Positions 1 through 5,226 of a stretch of 5,226 nt of DNA are shown here, in pieces. The stretch spans positions 1 through 5,226 of IMG/VR virus record IMGVR_UViG_2693429676_000014. The stretch is one strand, 5' to 3'. The position numbers and the translations under genes were made by a program. Position 1 is the first letter of the stretch. Each line of letters begins with the position of its first letter. Under the pieces are notes generated by a model that did not search any database, was not told where the DNA came from, and worked only from the letters and a program-made list of their open reading frames with translations. This stretch comes from a virus (taxonomy: Duplodnaviria > Heunggongvirae > Uroviricota > Caudoviricetes).

Positions 1-1170
<1,170 letters not shown>

Positions 1171-1206
1171 TGGAGCACCTGTGTTGTTCTGAGGTGAGCA
1201 TATCAC

Positions 1207-1242
1207 CTCTGTTCAGGTGGCCAAATTCAGTGTGCCACTTCA
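1207..1242. repeat. IS911 left terminal inverted repeat (~36 bp)
   Basis: Reverse complement begins TGAAGTGGCACACTGAATTTGGCCACC. It sits just upstream of the orfA start, and baseplate-gene sequence begins immediately after position 1242. Confidence 0.85.
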
Positions 1243-2609
1243 TTTCTTCACTCTTTTCTGCATCTTCAGGTATCAATTGGCGCGATAATCTTTACGACGC
1301 TTCATTTCGTGGCGTTCCGTTTTCGGTGGAGAGCGACGAGGGTTCGTTCGGACGCCGCGTTCAGGTCCATGAATACCCAAACCGTGACAAACCGTACACG
1401 GAAGATCTCGGGCGTGCCACGCGACGGCTGACGATTAATGCGTATCTCGTTGGTGATGATTACGCAGAGCAGCGCGACAGGCTGATTACAGCGATTGAAA
1501 CCGCCGGGCCGGGGACGCTGATCCATCCGCAGTTCGGTGAAATGCAGGGCTGTATTGACGGGCAGGTGACCGTTTCTCACTCCGGCACTGAAGGCCGTAT
1601 GTGCCGGGTTTCATTTCAGTTTGTTGAGAGCGGGGAACTGTCATTTCCGGTCGCCGGAGCTGCAACCGCCAGAAAACTGGAGGAGTCGTCCGTATTCCTG
1701 GATGAGTTGATTGAAGACATGTTCGGCGATTTTGATCTCGCGGGAATACCGGACTTTATTCAGAACGATGTTATTGCCCGGACGACCGATATGCTGGGAA
1801 CCGTTCAGACAGCTTTCAAAATGGTTAATTCGGCTGTTTCTGCCGGAGCGAGACTACTGCAGGGCGATTTATCCGTCATTCTGATGCCGCCGTCGGTTGC
1901 CAGTGATTTTGTGCATACGTTGCAGGATACCTGGCGGGCCGGAACCCGGCTGGTGGATAACACACAGGATCTGGTGCAGTCCATAACGACAATGTCCGGC
2001 ATTACGCTGGACCCAGGACTGGCACCGCGTGCGGTGTGGCCCACAGATTCCGCATCGGTTATCAGGCAAAAACAGCAGACAAACCTTGTGGCTGCTGTCA
2101 TCCGGACGACGGCAATCAGCGAAGCCACAAGGGCGGTCACTTCACTGCCACAACCCGGAAGCCTGGTGAAAAATCAGCAGGCGGTTGTGGCTGTTGGTGG
2201 TTCCACTGAACGTCAGTCCGATATTATTCACGTTTCTCATCCGGCACTTGACAGCGTGGCAGCCAGCACAGGACAGGATGAGAGAGCGCAACCACCCACG
2301 CGGGAAAATCTCACCATCATACGCGAATCGCTGAACGCGGCGATTGAACAGGAGCTCAGGCGTACGGCGGATGACAGGCTGTTTTTTCAGCTGACGTCAT
2401 TACGTACAGAACTGAACCGGGATATTCAGGCGCGTCTGGTTCAGACGGAGGAAACCGCAGAGCGAACGCCAGCGGAAGTTCTGCCTGCGCTTGTTCTGGC
2501 TGCGTCATGGTACGACGATGCGTCCCGTGAAACTGATATCCTGGATCGAAATGCCATCTCTCATCCGGGCTTTGTTCCGGTCAGGGCATTAAGGGTACCC
2601 GTCAGATGA
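1243..2609 (+). pseudogene. Mu N (gp43)-like DNA circulation protein, 5' end separated from its start by the IS911 insertion
   Basis: The conserved N-terminal motif ...INWRDNLYDASFRGVPFSVESDEGSFGRRVQVHEYPNRDKPYTEDLGRA... (DNA circulation N-terminal domain) begins about 12 codons after the IS end. There is no in-frame ATG, GTG or TTG between the junction (1243) and that motif; the first is a GTG at 1326, inside the conserved region. The ORF-track protein (1170..2609) takes its first 24 residues from IS911 sequence. The frame is otherwise intact to the TGA at 2607..2609. Confidence 0.75.
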
Positions 2610-3682
2610 ATGATACCGTTTTACTTCGGGTTTCCGGTCGCGAATGGGGCGGCTGGACATCCGTCCGTATCAGTGCGGGCATTAACCGTATTGCCCGGGA
2701 TTTTAATGTTGCCATTACCACCCGCTGGCCCGGAAGCCGGGATTATCAACCCCGGATAAAAAATGGTGAGCTGGTTGAAGTGCTTATCGGGGATGAGCCT
2801 GTGCTCACCGGATATGTGGAGGCACTACCGCTTCGTTATGACGCCAGCAGCGTCAGCATGGGAATTGTCGGGCGAAGCAAAACAGCCGATCTGGTTGACT
2901 GCTCTGCTTTGCCACTCCAGCAGAGCGGAAAAAACCTGCTCAGAATAGTCAGTGAACTGGCTGCGCCATTTGGCATCACCGTTGTTGATGCTGGCGTGCC
3001 GCAGACAGCGGTGATTGATGCCCAGCCGGAACACGGCGAAACCGTTGCCGATTGTCTTAACCGGTTACTGGGGCAGGTTCAGACGCTGGCTTATGACGAT
3101 GAATGCGGGCGACTGGTTCTGGGAAAACCCGGAACAGGTAAAGCGGCGACGGCGCTGGTGCTGGGAGAGAATATTCTTTCCTGTGACACGGAAAGAAGCA
3201 TCAGAGAGCGGTTTTCTGAATATCAGGTCAGTGGGCAGCGCCCGGGCAACGACGATGATTTTGGTGAGGCCACCATTGCCGCAATACGTCAGACCATTCA
3301 GGACAGTGGCGTGACCCGTTATCGCCCTTTGTTGATTCAGCAGTCAGGCACAGCAACGACAGCAACCTGTAAGGCCCGTTGTGAATTTGAAGCGCGCCAA
3401 CGGGCTGCGCTTACCCGTGAGACAACATATACGGTTCAGGGCTGGCGGCAGGGCAGTGGCGCGTTATGGCGTCCGGGGTTATCTGTCATCGTTTTCGACC
3501 CGCTGAATAATTTTGATAATGATGAACTGGTGATCGCAGAAGTTACCTATAACCAGGACGACCGGGGCACGACGACTGAATTACGGGTTGGCCCGGCAGA
3601 TGCTTATCTCCCCGAGCCTGTTACCGCCAGGAAGAAAAAAATGTTGAGGAGGATTTCTGATGAACGGGTTTTCTCTTCGTAA
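2606..3682 (+). CDS. Mu P (gp44)-like baseplate hub protein (phage late control gene D family), 358 aa
   Basis: Intact 358-aa ORF. Its ATG overlaps the upstream stop as ATGA (2606..2609), with a weak AAGGG ribosome-binding site 10 nt upstream. Size and position after the N-like gene match the Mu N-P-Q-gp46-gp47 order. Family assignment is from memory. Confidence 0.85.
   Translation: MNDTVLLRVSGREWGGWTSVRISAGINRIARDFNVAITTRWPGSRDYQPRIKNGELVEVLIGDEPVLTGYVEALPLRYDASSVSMGIVGRSKTADLVDCSALPLQQSGKNLLRIVSELAAPFGITVVDAGVPQTAVIDAQPEHGETVADCLNRLLGQVQTLAYDDECGRLVLGKPGTGKAATALVLGENILSCDTERSIRERFSEYQVSGQRPGNDDDFGEATIAAIRQTIQDSGVTRYRPLLIQQSGTATTATCKARCEFEARQRAALTRETTYTVQGWRQGSGALWRPGLSVIVFDPLNNFDNDELVIAEVTYNQDDRGTTTELRVGPADAYLPEPVTARKKKMLRRISDERVFSS
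3646..3652 (+). promoter_or_regulatory. Ribosome-binding site (GAGGAGG) for the gp45-like gene
   Basis: Near-consensus Shine-Dalgarno sequence 7 nt upstream of the ATG at 3660, lying inside the 3' end of the P-like gene. Confidence 0.6.
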
Positions 3683-4193
3683 TCTGATTTCCCGGGCTGT
3701 CATCACGGCGGTGGATTCCGCCAGAAAGTGTCAGTCTGTAGGGTTGAAAATGATAGCCGGAGATCAGAAACAACACGTTGAGCACCTTGAACCTTATGGT
3801 TTTACATCTGCCGCACAGAACGGTGCTGAGGGCGTTGCTTTATTTCCGGCGGGCGATCGTTCTCATGGTGTGGTTGTGGTCGTGGCTGACAGACGTTACC
3901 GGCTGAAAGGACTGAAACGTGGGGAAGTGGCGCTTTATGACGATCTGGGACAGTCCGTTGTCCTGACCCGTTCCGGTATTGTGGTGGACGGGGCCGGGAA
4001 GGCCATAATTTTTAAAAACGCGCCTAAAGCGCGCTTTGAAATGCCAGTCGAATCCACCGCCGATATTACTGACAATTGCGACAGTGGCGGACTCAGCATG
4101 CAGCAAATGCGGCAGGCCTACAATGCCCACAAACATACCGAAAATGGTGATGGTGGCGGGATCACTGACACGCCGGATCAACCGATGGGCTGA
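3660..4193 (+). CDS. Mu gp45 (Q)-like baseplate central spike protein (baseplate assembly protein V family), 177 aa
   Basis: ATG at 3660 with a strong GAGGAGG ribosome-binding site 7 nt upstream, overlapping the last 23 nt of the P-like gene. Motifs typical of the family: RAVITAVD, LEPYGFTS, GEVALYDD. Confidence 0.88.
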   Translation: MNGFSLRNLISRAVITAVDSARKCQSVGLKMIAGDQKQHVEHLEPYGFTSAAQNGAEGVALFPAGDRSHGVVVVVADRRYRLKGLKRGEVALYDDLGQSVVLTRSGIVVDGAGKAIIFKNAPKARFEMPVESTADITDNCDSGGLSMQQMRQAYNAHKHTENGDGGGITDTPDQPMG

Positions 4194-4198
4194 AAATC

Positions 4199-4609
4199 AT
4201 GATGATTAATGTTAACGGGCGACCCGTGTCGACCGGGGCTTCGATCGACCTTCTGACGCGTGCTGTGATTATTTCGCTTTTTACATGGCGGCGTGCCGGG
4301 CGTGATGATGCACCACGGATATTTGGATGGTGGGGGGATACCTGGCCTGCGGTTCAGAATGATCGCACGGGGTCGCGTTTGTATCTGTTGCGACGCAGCA
4401 AGCTGACAAATAAAACCCCGCAGCTTGCCAGAGATTATGTCCGTGAGGCGCTGGCGTGGATGGTGGAGGATGGTGTTGCTTCCCGTCTTGATATTAACGC
4501 TGTCCGGACCGGGACAGACTCGCTGGCACTTGCCATTACCATTTACCAGCGTGACGGCAATATTCACAACATTATTTTTGATGATATCTGGAGTGAACTG
4601 AATGGCTGA
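4199..4609 (+). CDS. Mu gp46-like baseplate protein (phage GP46 family), 136 aa
   Basis: Intact ORF starting 5 nt after the gp45-like stop (ATG at 4199, alternative ATG at 4202) and ending at TGA 4607..4609. Size and position match Mu gp46. No strong ribosome-binding site, so probably translated by coupling or reinitiation. Confidence 0.82.
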   Translation: MMINVNGRPVSTGASIDLLTRAVIISLFTWRRAGRDDAPRIFGWWGDTWPAVQNDRTGSRLYLLRRSKLTNKTPQLARDYVREALAWMVEDGVASRLDINAVRTGTDSLALAITIYQRDGNIHNIIFDDIWSELNG

Positions 4610-5195
4610 CAGTCAGTTTTATCGCCCCGGCCTCCCGCAACTTATTTCTATGATCCGGAGCGATTTATTAACCCGCTTTGAGCAGGATACGCTGCTTCGT
4701 CGTATGGATGCGGAAGTGTATGCCCGTGTACAGGCTGCAGCCGTACACACGTTGTACGGGTATATCGATTATCTTGCCAGAAATCTGTTACCGGACGTGT
4801 GTGATGAAGACTGGCTGTACCGGCACGCCAGAATCAAACGCTGCCCGCGAAAAGAAGCGGTGGCAGCCCGGGGATTTGTGCGCTGGGATGGCGTAGAGGG
4901 GACGCCGGTATTGCCAGCGGGAACGCAGATCCAGCGTGATAATCAGGTGACCTTTACCACGACGGCGACGGTGACCGCAGCCGATGGTCTTCTCCGGGTG
5001 CCTGTTGTGGCAGACGAACCGGGATCGGCGGGGAATACGGATGATGGTATTGCCATGCAACTGGGAACACCCGTCAGTGGTCTGCCGTCCACAGGGTACG
5101 CTGACACCATTACAGACGGTGAAGATATTGAAAATCTGGAAATATGGCGTGCCCGCGTTATGGAACGTTATTACTACATTCCACAGGGGGGCGCA
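4602..5195 (+). pseudogene. Mu gp47 (W)-like baseplate J-family protein, 3'-truncated by an IS1 insertion at 5195/5196
   Basis: Not in the supplied ORF track. Manual translation from ATG 4602 (GGAG ribosome-binding site at 4589..4592, 8-nt ATGGCTGA overlap with the gp46-like stop) gives MADSQFYRPGLPQLISMIRSDLL...AGTQIQRDNQVTFTT...EPGSAGNTDDG...RYYYIPQGGA with no stop. The frame is cut after PQGGA by the IS1 terminus at 5196. Baseplate J assignment is from family-typical motifs (PAGT, AGNTDDG, PQGGA). Confidence 0.8.
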
Positions 5196-5218
5196 GGTAA
5201 TGACTCCAACTTATTGAT
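5196..5218. repeat. IS1 terminal inverted repeat (23 bp, right-end type)
   Basis: GGTAATGACTCCAACTTATTGAT matches the canonical 23-bp IS1 right-end repeat. Confidence 0.8.
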
Positions 5219-5226
5219 AGTGTTTT
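5211..5226 (-). CDS. IS1 transposase InsB (InsAB') extreme C-terminus; last codons plus stop only
   Basis: The reverse complement of the window end reads ...AAA CAC TAT CAA TAA, matching the ...K H Y Q stop ending of IS1 insB as I recall it, with the stop codon (5213..5211) inside the repeat. Too short to confirm independently. Confidence 0.45.

Follow-up and report, generated by a model that had tools for sequence, protein, structure and literature searches.

Genes of the baseplate block

The stretch of DNA analysed here (the window, 5,226 nt) is the entire contig CXCX01000195.1, identical over 5226/5226 nt, from a short-read draft assembly of Shigella sonnei (GCA_001258435.1). Between positions 1243 and 5195, it encodes on the plus strand homologues of Mu gp43 (N), gp44 (P), gp45, gp46 and gp47, assigned by Pfam and arranged in the Mu order. 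In the profile search of the window, all five families scored far above their gathering cut-offs, and BLASTP of the window products against the Mu proteins yielded E-values from 8e-14 to 7e-50. An earlier, sequence-only reading had described a Mu-like baseplate block between two insertion sequences (IS); its coordinates for the block and for both IS boundaries proved exact, and the correspondence to the Mu baseplate module was recovered as the same gene order in the window and in the Mu record. In Mu, gp43 is the tube initiator, gp44 the hub, gp45 the spike, gp46 wedge protein 1 and gp47 wedge protein 2 (PMC11915804), and, by homology, the homologous products of the window presumably have the same structural roles.

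The first gene, N' (1243..2609, plus strand; DNA_circ_N, E = 3e-36, in ORF 1170-2609), encodes the homologue of gp43, the tail-tube initiator, also known as DNA circularization protein. It lacks the first 25 nt, with which the start codon and 8 codons are gone, and the remainder matches, at 100% identity, residues 10-463 of the 463-aa protein that is intact in S. sonnei 53G and in the E. coli prophage L001; with L48 of phage phiP27 the identity is 96%, and with Mu gp43 it is 37% across 89 residues. The gene for the baseplate hub, P (2606..3682, plus strand; Pfam GpP-like_1st, Gp44-like_2nd and GpP_4th), encodes 358 aa compared to 351 aa in relatives. Alignment revealed a 1-nt deletion in an A-run (A7 at 3635-3641 versus A8 in relatives), because of which the last 6 residues of P are replaced by 13 others and the ORF overlaps gp45 by 23 nt. 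The 358-aa form is that of S. sonnei and the 351-aa form that of E. coli; P is 99.4% identical to phiP27 L49 over residues 1-345 and 32% identical to Mu gp44.

The homologue of Mu gp45 (3660..4193, plus strand; Phage_Mu_Gp45, E = 2e-26), the central spike or baseplate assembly protein V, is full length at 177 aa, with 96% identity to phiP27 L50 and 26% to Mu gp45. The gp46 homologue, baseplate wedge protein 1 (4199..4609, plus strand; Pfam GP46, E = 4.5e-33), has 136 aa and differs from phiP27 and L001 by an in-frame 3-nt deletion (one codon) after about 4302; it is 95.6% identical to phiP27 L51 and 39% identical to Mu gp46. Finally, gp47' (4602..5195, plus strand), the Baseplate_J/Mu gp47 homologue and wedge protein 2, covers profile positions 2-134 of 255 and consists of the first 198 of 360 codons, followed by IS1; these are 100% identical to residues 1-198 of the 360-aa protein of L001 and 98.5% identical to phiP27 L52. 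Of the three internal genes that had been described as intact, gp45 and gp46 are indeed open, whereas P is frameshifted at its 3' end. An Rfam scan detected no RNA families in the window.

Insertion sequences and the locus in S. sonnei

IS1 is a 768-bp element with terminal inverted repeats (GGTAATGACTCC...) that carries insA and insB and generates a 9-bp target duplication. In the window, it is represented by the first 31 nt, the terminal inverted repeat GGTAATGACTCCAACTTATTGATAGTGTTTT (5196..5226, at the contig end), which match the element end exactly and are identical to the IS1 end at the same site in 53G. Phage DNA ends at 5195, and comparison of the 53G junctions with the uninterrupted gp47 gene of L001 places the target site, GGGGGCGCA, at 5187..5195. 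In 53G, the same junction is followed by a full IS1 with InsA and InsB, beyond which GGGGGCGCA is repeated as a 9-bp target-site duplication; this identical junction corroborates the earlier claim that IS1 cuts the right terminal gene here. Given the duplication, and given that the rest of the tail follows in 53G, the IS1 in gp47 looks like a simple insertion and not the edge of a deletion. The gene was interrupted in all ten S. sonnei loci examined and, in the accessible part of the table in PMC7373316, in 47/47 strains among those listed. With gp47 disrupted in all S. sonnei copies inspected, no tail can be assembled from the remnant.

Positions 1243-5226 of the window are 100% identical, IS1 junction included, to positions 8638-12621 of the 53G locus (L003). 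This remnant (HE616528.1, about 3,018,700-3,033,600) shares with the window the IS1 site in gp47 and the frameshift in P; by contrast, its N is intact (463 aa) and free of IS911, by which N is cut in the window. A check of the flanks, as had been proposed, found in 53G the sheath, tube and tape-measure genes on one side and the gp47 C-terminus, gp48 and the tail fibres on the other. With the tape-measure gene upstream and the Phage_Mu_Gp48 and fibre genes downstream, the arrangement is colinear with the Mu record, and the tmRNA gene (ssrA) comes directly after the fibre genes. The notion of an isolated 3.95-kb island bracketed by IS elements has to be abandoned because identical sequence runs on both sides of the block in 53G. 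Short-read assemblies break at repeats, such as IS copies, and the window ends in IS copies for this reason; the visible IS sequence amounts to 1242 nt of IS911 and 31 nt of IS1, nothing more. The apparent bracketing thus largely reflects contig breaks at repeats.

Other IS copies interrupt the locus as well. In 53G, an IS1 lies within a 160-aa ORF (target duplication CGTTAAAAC), and most S. sonnei strains carry an IS1 in the ORF upstream of N. IS600 occupies a 3.5-kb deletion junction in 53G, with IS4 beyond it, and all that is left of the prophage upstream of the tail genes in S. sonnei is a 452-bp protease fragment between IS4 and IS600.

The left part of the window (1..1242, minus strand) is IS911, an IS3 family element, with 99.9% identity to annotated IS911 copies and with the Pfam domains HTH_Tnp_1 and rve. 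IS911 is about 1250 bp long and has imperfect terminal inverted repeats starting TGAAGTGG, with orfA and orfB joined by a -1 programmed frameshift. Here, 1242 of about 1249-1250 bp are present, 7 nt of the IRR end missing at the contig edge. Both reading frames are open, OrfA running from the ATG at 1170 to 868 and OrfB from 841 to 2, and the NCBI annotation gives the 389-aa programmed-frameshift product (OrfAB) at 2..1170. The IRL end is at 1242, with the terminal repeat ...GTGTGCCACTTCA, and the inverted repeat was confirmed in a full copy (L017). Identity, IRL, open reading frames and annotated OrfAB all agree with the assignment to IS911, of which the last 7 nt and the target duplication lie beyond the contig. 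Phage DNA begins at 1243, a point that in intact relatives lies 25 nt into the reading frame of N; the left terminal gene is accordingly cut where the sequence-only reading placed the cut, yet its loss is limited to these few nucleotides.

At least three contigs, two in NCBI assemblies and one in a Logan run and each from a different sample, contain the IS911-N junction at 100% identity; the chimeric N' product is encoded on four contigs altogether, and the junction was absent from the complete genomes searched. The accessible part of the S3 Table of PMC7373316 includes an IS911 site called by ISMapper at IS-free 53G coordinates 2758453/2758446. As predicted, this listed site is -453, +3954 and -4861 nt from the two IS1 sites and the IS600 site, the table coordinates being matchable only to within about 100 bp. 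Both of its flanks, as listed there, map within 7 bp of each other, which is the signature of a simple insertion with target duplication, and the site is missing from 47/47 strains among those in the accessible listing. IS911 is a rare-sublineage insertion.

Alternatively, IS911 could be the endpoint of a deletion or rearrangement through which the start of N and the tape-measure, tube and sheath genes were lost or relocated. The window stops 7 nt before the far end of IS911, leaving the other flank unseen, and an IS-associated deletion did happen in the same prophage, at the IS600 junction. However, an ISMapper site at the matching position, in the accessible part of the table and linked to this isolate by position only, has flanks within 7 bp of each other, and we consider a deletion or rearrangement endpoint unlikely. 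The IS911 of this isolate looks like a simple insertion, not a deletion edge; such an insertion would join the IS911 IRR end (TGAAGTGGTCAACAAAAACTGG...) to ...ATGGACTTACCTTCTTTACCTTCTC, with a short duplication.

A chimeric N gene and possible residual expression

Direct reading of the sequence identified a substitute GTG start for N' inside the IS911 IRL (1230..1242, plus strand), with a Shine-Dalgarno-like AGGTGG 9 nt upstream of the GTG at 1230. The chimeric ORF (1230-2609) encodes 459 aa starting with MCHF, the first four codons coming from IS911, and a protein of exactly this sequence has been deposited as WP_052971568.1 / CSQ33161.1, under the name 'DNA circularization protein [Shigella sonnei]'. 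For chimeric N versions initiating at TTG 1170 or GTG 1194, exact-product look-ups gave no match. A promoter and terminator scan of the window gave counts at chance level; no promoter-like site stood above chance, and none was on the plus strand in or near the IS911-N junction. As judged from the substitute GTG with its AGGTGG and from the open gp45 and gp46, residual expression may be possible. The dN/dS ratios relative to phiP27 were 0.06-0.16, a range compatible with constraint, and the disrupted gp47 gives the same value. We rejected dN/dS as evidence for or against co-option because of this shared value and because nearly all the divergence predates decay; the low values mirror the past of these genes in a phage, not their present use.

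The sequence-only reading had raised the possibility that the surviving genes are co-opted, for example, in a tailocin-like particle. That N', P, gp45 and gp46 are expressed and serve such a particle or another host function could be suggested by the open gp45 and gp46, the nearly open P, the substitute start available for N' and the identical sequences across many S. sonnei genomes. However, a species whose common ancestor is as recent as that of S. sonnei, dated to the late 17th century (PMC7373316), would be expected to show such identity. Moreover, IS1 splits gp47 in every S. sonnei copy seen, and each wedge of a Mu-type baseplate requires two gp47 (PMC11915804). Deletion has removed the head genes, the second IS1 and IS911 break the operon, no promoter-like site exceeds chance, and dN/dS is equal for the broken gp47. 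A tailocin would have a full sheath, tube, baseplate and fibre set, no head, and host control; here, gp47 is split, N is cut and there is no promoter signal. With gp47 interrupted in 10/10 S. sonnei loci and in 47/47 strains among those in the accessible part of the published listing, co-option appears very improbable. Equally little credence is given to a more specific scenario in which the chimeric N' (without 9 native residues) would be made along with the hub, spike and gp46 and retained for host benefit in the sublineage; were it true, the benefit could be interference with incoming P27- or Mu-type phages.

The parent phage

Positions 1254-5196 of the window show 96.9% nucleotide identity over 3943 nt to the Stx2e-converting phage phiP27 (NC_003356 / AJ298298), whose genes L48-L52 correspond to the five in the window, without change of order and at 95-99% protein identity. 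In 53G, the match to phiP27 spans the sheath gene through the tail fibres, with 96.5% identity from the sheath to the tape measure and 93% from gp47 to the fibres. In contrast to phiP27, the window has N cut by IS911, gp47 cut by IS1, the end of P frameshifted and gp46 one codon short, and the S. sonnei copy, a remnant at ssrA, is missing the head, regulatory and stx regions. The S. sonnei locus is a remnant and not a complete, inducible phiP27-like genome with integrase, regulation, lysis, terminase and head genes; an earlier paper reported phiP27-like prophage regions from this species (PMC5447701). Nothing directly useful emerged when the literature was searched for phiP27 in combination with Mu-like tails.

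These relationships bear on the earlier designation of the block as part of a Mu-like prophage. Colinearity with the Mu baseplate order holds, but the high nucleotide identity is to phiP27, not to Mu. If the block were the remnant of a true Mu-like transposable prophage, with A, B and c expected or once present nearby, the assignment of all five genes to Mu-named Pfam families in the gp43-gp47 order would be readily accounted for. However, the colinear Mu proteins of the same families are only 26-39% identical to those of the window. The phiP27 record lists an integrase and an excisionase, along with a Q-like gene and a cos site, and is devoid of a transposase; phiP27 has an HK97-type head and is of the Mu type in the tail module only. 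Furthermore, the 44-kb E. coli prophage L001, 99% identical to the block, carries lambdoid late genes, a P27-family terminase and an HK97-type head. Mu is transposable, whereas the phage type around the block here is not. No transposase A, B ATPase or c-type repressor was found within 10 kb on either side in the ten S. sonnei loci, in L001 (44 kb) or in phiP27. To look for Mu A, B and c, as had been proposed, is misdirected because the parent phage is of the phiP27 type and only its tail is of the Mu type; none of the three genes is expected. The remnant also adjoins ssrA, a classic integrase attachment site. Taken together, these observations make derivation from a Mu-like transposable prophage extremely unlikely.

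Discussion

The window very probably represents the baseplate section of a defective phiP27-like prophage adjoining ssrA in S. sonnei that has become nonfunctional debris, a reading based on direct observation of what the genes are, of the two junctions, of how the block relates to phiP27 and of the condition of the 53G locus. That the IS junctions are assembly artefacts in a genome where the prophage is intact, as could be thought of a short-read contig ending in repeats, has a negligible probability because closed S. sonnei chromosomes have exactly the same IS1-gp47 junction, with a target duplication, and the IS911-N junction recurs base for base in at least three contigs of different samples. 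A plasmid origin was rejected as well, given that the plasmid collection matched the IS portion of the window alone. The earlier description of a degraded, IS-riddled prophage tail module remains apt, with both terminal genes interrupted at the IS boundaries.

These results are compatible with a stepwise history of decay. Phages of the parent type integrate by a tyrosine integrase, package their DNA from cos and have an HK97-type head, with a contractile tail comprising a Mu-type gp43 tube initiator, gp44 hub, gp45 spike and gp46, gp47 and gp48 wedge proteins. The entry of IS1 into gp47, which left a 9-bp duplication, would predate the divergence of the S. sonnei lineages; an IS600-associated deletion would have taken out the capsid and connector genes, the head protease gene remnant becoming flanked by IS4, and P would have acquired its poly-A frameshift. 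In most lineages, a second IS1 would have inserted into the small ORF that separates the tape-measure gene from N. IS911 would then have landed 25 nt into N, in the opposite orientation, in a rare sublineage including this isolate, detaching N and the downstream genes from the start codon and from upstream late transcription. We infer the order of these inactivation events and the absence of expression, as well as, from 53G and the published table, the continuity of the remnant beyond both IS elements in this isolate. The five genes of the block are relics, nonfunctional phage debris.

The locus is one instance of the IS-driven gene inactivation documented in Shigella by Hawkey et al. 2020 (PLoS Genet, PMC7373316). 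IS1, IS4, IS600 and IS911, all of which interrupt it, are four of the five IS types dominant in Shigella, and S. sonnei has a median of 286 IS per chromosome, with strain-specific sites in 75% of genomes (PMC7373316). An IS-interrupted prophage tail in this species is an ordinary, already known consequence of IS expansion, and its importance beyond bookkeeping is small. The case does illustrate that an IS-bracketed 'island' in Shigella short-read contigs can be a product of assembly and not necessarily a biological unit, and that 'Mu-like' Pfam names on tail genes are no proof of a transposable phage. The IS911 insertion could be a sublineage marker for S. sonnei genotyping. In WP_052971568.1, automated annotation has logged a truncated N, headed by four IS911 codons, as an apparently intact protein.

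Gene content and affinities

Positions 1243-5195 of the window hold five consecutive plus-strand reading frames, the products of which match the Pfam families DNA_circ_N, GpP-like/Gp44-like/GpP_4th, Phage_Mu_Gp45, GP46 and Baseplate_J (E-values of 1e-19 to 1e-36, each above the curated cut-off). Comparison with the Mu record places these frames in the order of Mu genes 43 (N), 44 (P), 45, 46 and 47, to which cryo-EM has assigned the roles of tube initiator, hub, spike, wedge protein 1 and wedge protein 2, respectively (PMC11915804). A sequence-only reading had recognized this order, and its boundaries are exact, with IS911 ending at 1242 and IS1 starting at 5196; this observation is confirmed, and the interpretation attached to it is supported in part.

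One part that fails is the attribution to a Mu-like prophage. The block shares 96.9% identity with the Stx2e-converting phage phiP27 and 99% with a prophage in E. coli FDAARGOS_944, whereas its proteins share with those of Mu a common gene order but only 26-39% identity. The phiP27 genome combines the same Mu-type tail module with an integrase, an excisionase, a Q-like gene, a cos site, a terminase and an HK97-type head, and no transposase is found in its record. The E. coli FDAARGOS_944 prophage carries RusA and Q, genes for lambdoid lysis, the small subunit of a P27-family terminase, and a protease and capsid of the HK97 family. Taken together, these identities and gene sets indicate that the element is a phiP27-like prophage carrying a Mu-type tail module, not a Mu-like prophage. 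Prophage regions of this kind have been described previously in S. sonnei (PMC5447701); at least 80% of the block is present in only 48 of 5426 complete E. coli genomes.

Against the FDAARGOS_944 prophage (L001), the most divergent gene is gp46 (4199-4609, compared with L001 22958-23371), at 93% protein identity. Because its neighbours are nearly identical (100% for N and the gp47 fragment, 99.7% for P), this divergence points to mosaic exchange of a small segment inside the tail module. In the same E. coli prophage, ISEc60 interrupts both the portal gene and the sheath gene, and a frameshifted gene for the T3SS effector ipaHe lies just past the tail-fibre genes (L001 28822-30463), a cargo arrangement like that of EIEC and Shigella.

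The remnant in S. sonnei

In S. sonnei 53G and nine other S. sonnei genomes, the same sequence sits inside a larger tail remnant rather than forming an isolated island. This remnant comprises IS4; a head protease gene reduced to a 452-bp fragment; IS600, at the junction left by the loss of ~3.5 kb of capsid and connector genes; the sheath, tube, chaperone and tape-measure genes; a 160-aa ORF, split in most strains by IS1 with the duplication CGTTAAAAC; an intact 463-aa N followed by P, gp45 and gp46; gp47, which IS1 divides, flanked by the duplication GGGGGCGCA, with the C-terminal part beyond it; gp48, the fibres and the fibre chaperone; and the tmRNA gene ssrA. The earlier reading of the block as a prophage remnant undergoing erosion by IS is upheld; IS4, IS600, IS1 and IS911 lie in or beside the locus.

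In the 53G locus (L003), IS600 (1737-2998) lies exactly at the junction, and the missing segment corresponds to the major capsid through tail-terminator genes (L001 10326-13834), an IS-adjacent deletion in the same remnant. Target duplication is not expected at a junction of this type. In S. sonnei CP044151.1 (L006 18196-20904), the DNA past the tail fibres is unlike that of the other genomes, with a phage integrase (Arm-DNA-bind_2 and Phage_integrase) replacing smpB, ratA and ratB; the fibre-side end of the remnant may therefore have been rearranged.

The IS junctions

The window covers contig CXCX01000195.1 (5226 bp), from the draft S. sonnei assembly GCA_001258435.1, from end to end, and in most assemblies carrying the same P protein that protein lies on contigs of 2-5 kb. 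Such contigs have the appearance of being bounded by repeats, so that the bracketing of the block by two IS is partly an assembly effect, and the tail genes go on in 53G. Nevertheless, both junctions are real. Positions 1243-5226 match HE616528.1, identified in PMC5447701 as the S. sonnei 53G chromosome, at 100% identity, IS1 junction included, and this junction is found in closed genomes; among the matches listed, three contigs from different samples share the IS911 junction without a base of difference.

On the right, positions 5196-5226 are the IS1 terminal repeat. Given the duplication and the C-terminal part of gp47 beyond IS1 in 53G, this appears to be a simple insertion past which the tail genes run on. 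The published ISMapper table gives this site in all 47 of the S. sonnei strains read from it, out of 126, and the IS1 site in the 160-aa ORF as absent, among these strains, from a lineage I strain only (PMC7373316). In agreement with the latter entry, the ORF is intact and free of IS1, between the tape-measure gene and N, in some S. sonnei genomes (L005 and L011, 8084-8566).

On the left, positions 1-1242 are 99.9% identical to annotated IS911 copies, with the transposase frames on the minus strand, the terminal repeat (IRL) ending at 1242 and the contig starting 7 nt inside the other end. In intact relatives, N begins with ATGGACTTACCTTCTTTACCTTCTC, followed by TTTCTTCAC, and the phage part of the window starts at that TTTCTTCAC; only 25 nt of N are lost, but with them go the start codon and the signals ahead of it. 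In position, the insertion matches an entry for IS911 in S3 Table of Hawkey et al. (2020; PMC7373316), given as 2758453/2758446 in IS-free 53G coordinates. Neighbouring IS sites predicted from the 53G locus at −453, +3954 and −4861 nt relative to it have table entries within the predicted intervals (IS1 2757919-2758045, IS1 2762346-2762434 and IS600 2753511-2753737, respectively). Given 76 IS911 sites spread over ~4.5 Mb, agreement to within 100 bp would arise by chance with a probability of ~0.3%. Both flanks of the tabulated site map together, the signature of a simple insertion. From this position and mapping, we infer that IS911 is directly followed, in this isolate, by the beginning of N and the tail genes upstream of it. 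A simple insertion would join the IRR end TGAAGTGGTCAACAAAAACTGG to ...GGAGACAGTATGGACTTACCTTCTTTACCTTCTC with a duplication of a few bases; IRR joined elsewhere would point to a deletion or rearrangement. The site is rare, being recorded in 0 of the 47 S. sonnei strains read from the table, and an exact-product look-up returned the chimeric N product from only four short contigs and no closed genome.

The locus is one instance of an IS process already documented in S. sonnei, where chromosomes hold a median of 286 IS, 85% of them belonging to IS1, IS2, IS4, IS600 and IS911, and 75% of genomes have strain-specific sites (PMC7373316); four of these dominant types are found here.

Coding integrity and expression

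Of the three internal genes previously taken to be intact, gp45 is full length, but gp46 is short by one codon and P (2606-3682) is frameshifted at its end. Loss of 1 nt from a run of A (A7 at 3635-3641, compared with A8 in phiP27 and L001) changes ...KKKNVEEDF to ...KKKMLRRISDERVFSS and makes the ORF overlap gp45 by 23 nt. The resulting 358-aa P, present on 187 contigs, appears to be the S. sonnei form; E. coli members of the cluster are mostly 351 aa. In two S. sonnei assemblies, UGZB01000001.1 (3 gaps) and CP029794.1 (1 gap), extra indels shorten the gp45 and gp46 gene calls (L004 11055-12002 and L009 11144-11587), which may be further decay or long-read homopolymer errors.

The block is most likely inert phage debris. 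Two gp47 are required per wedge of a Mu-type baseplate (PMC11915804), and none of the S. sonnei copies examined has an unbroken gp47; the remnant lacks head genes, and the operon is interrupted by up to three IS. No promoter-like site scored above chance in the scan, with none on the plus strand at the IS911-N junction, and no RNA families were detected in the window. The dN/dS values relative to phiP27 are 0.06-0.16 for N, P and gp45 and likewise for the broken gp47; they reflect the past of these genes in the phage and are uninformative on present function.

Truncated N (1230-2609) is publicly annotated in Shigella sonnei as a 459-aa 'DNA circularization protein' (WP_052971568.1, CSQ33161.1) with no pseudogene flag. 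The first four codons of WP_052971568.1 (MCHF) come from the IS911 terminal repeat, so that it is a chimeric gene call, only apparently complete. The GTG at 1230 in the IS911 end, already the start annotated by NCBI, is a possible route for residual expression.
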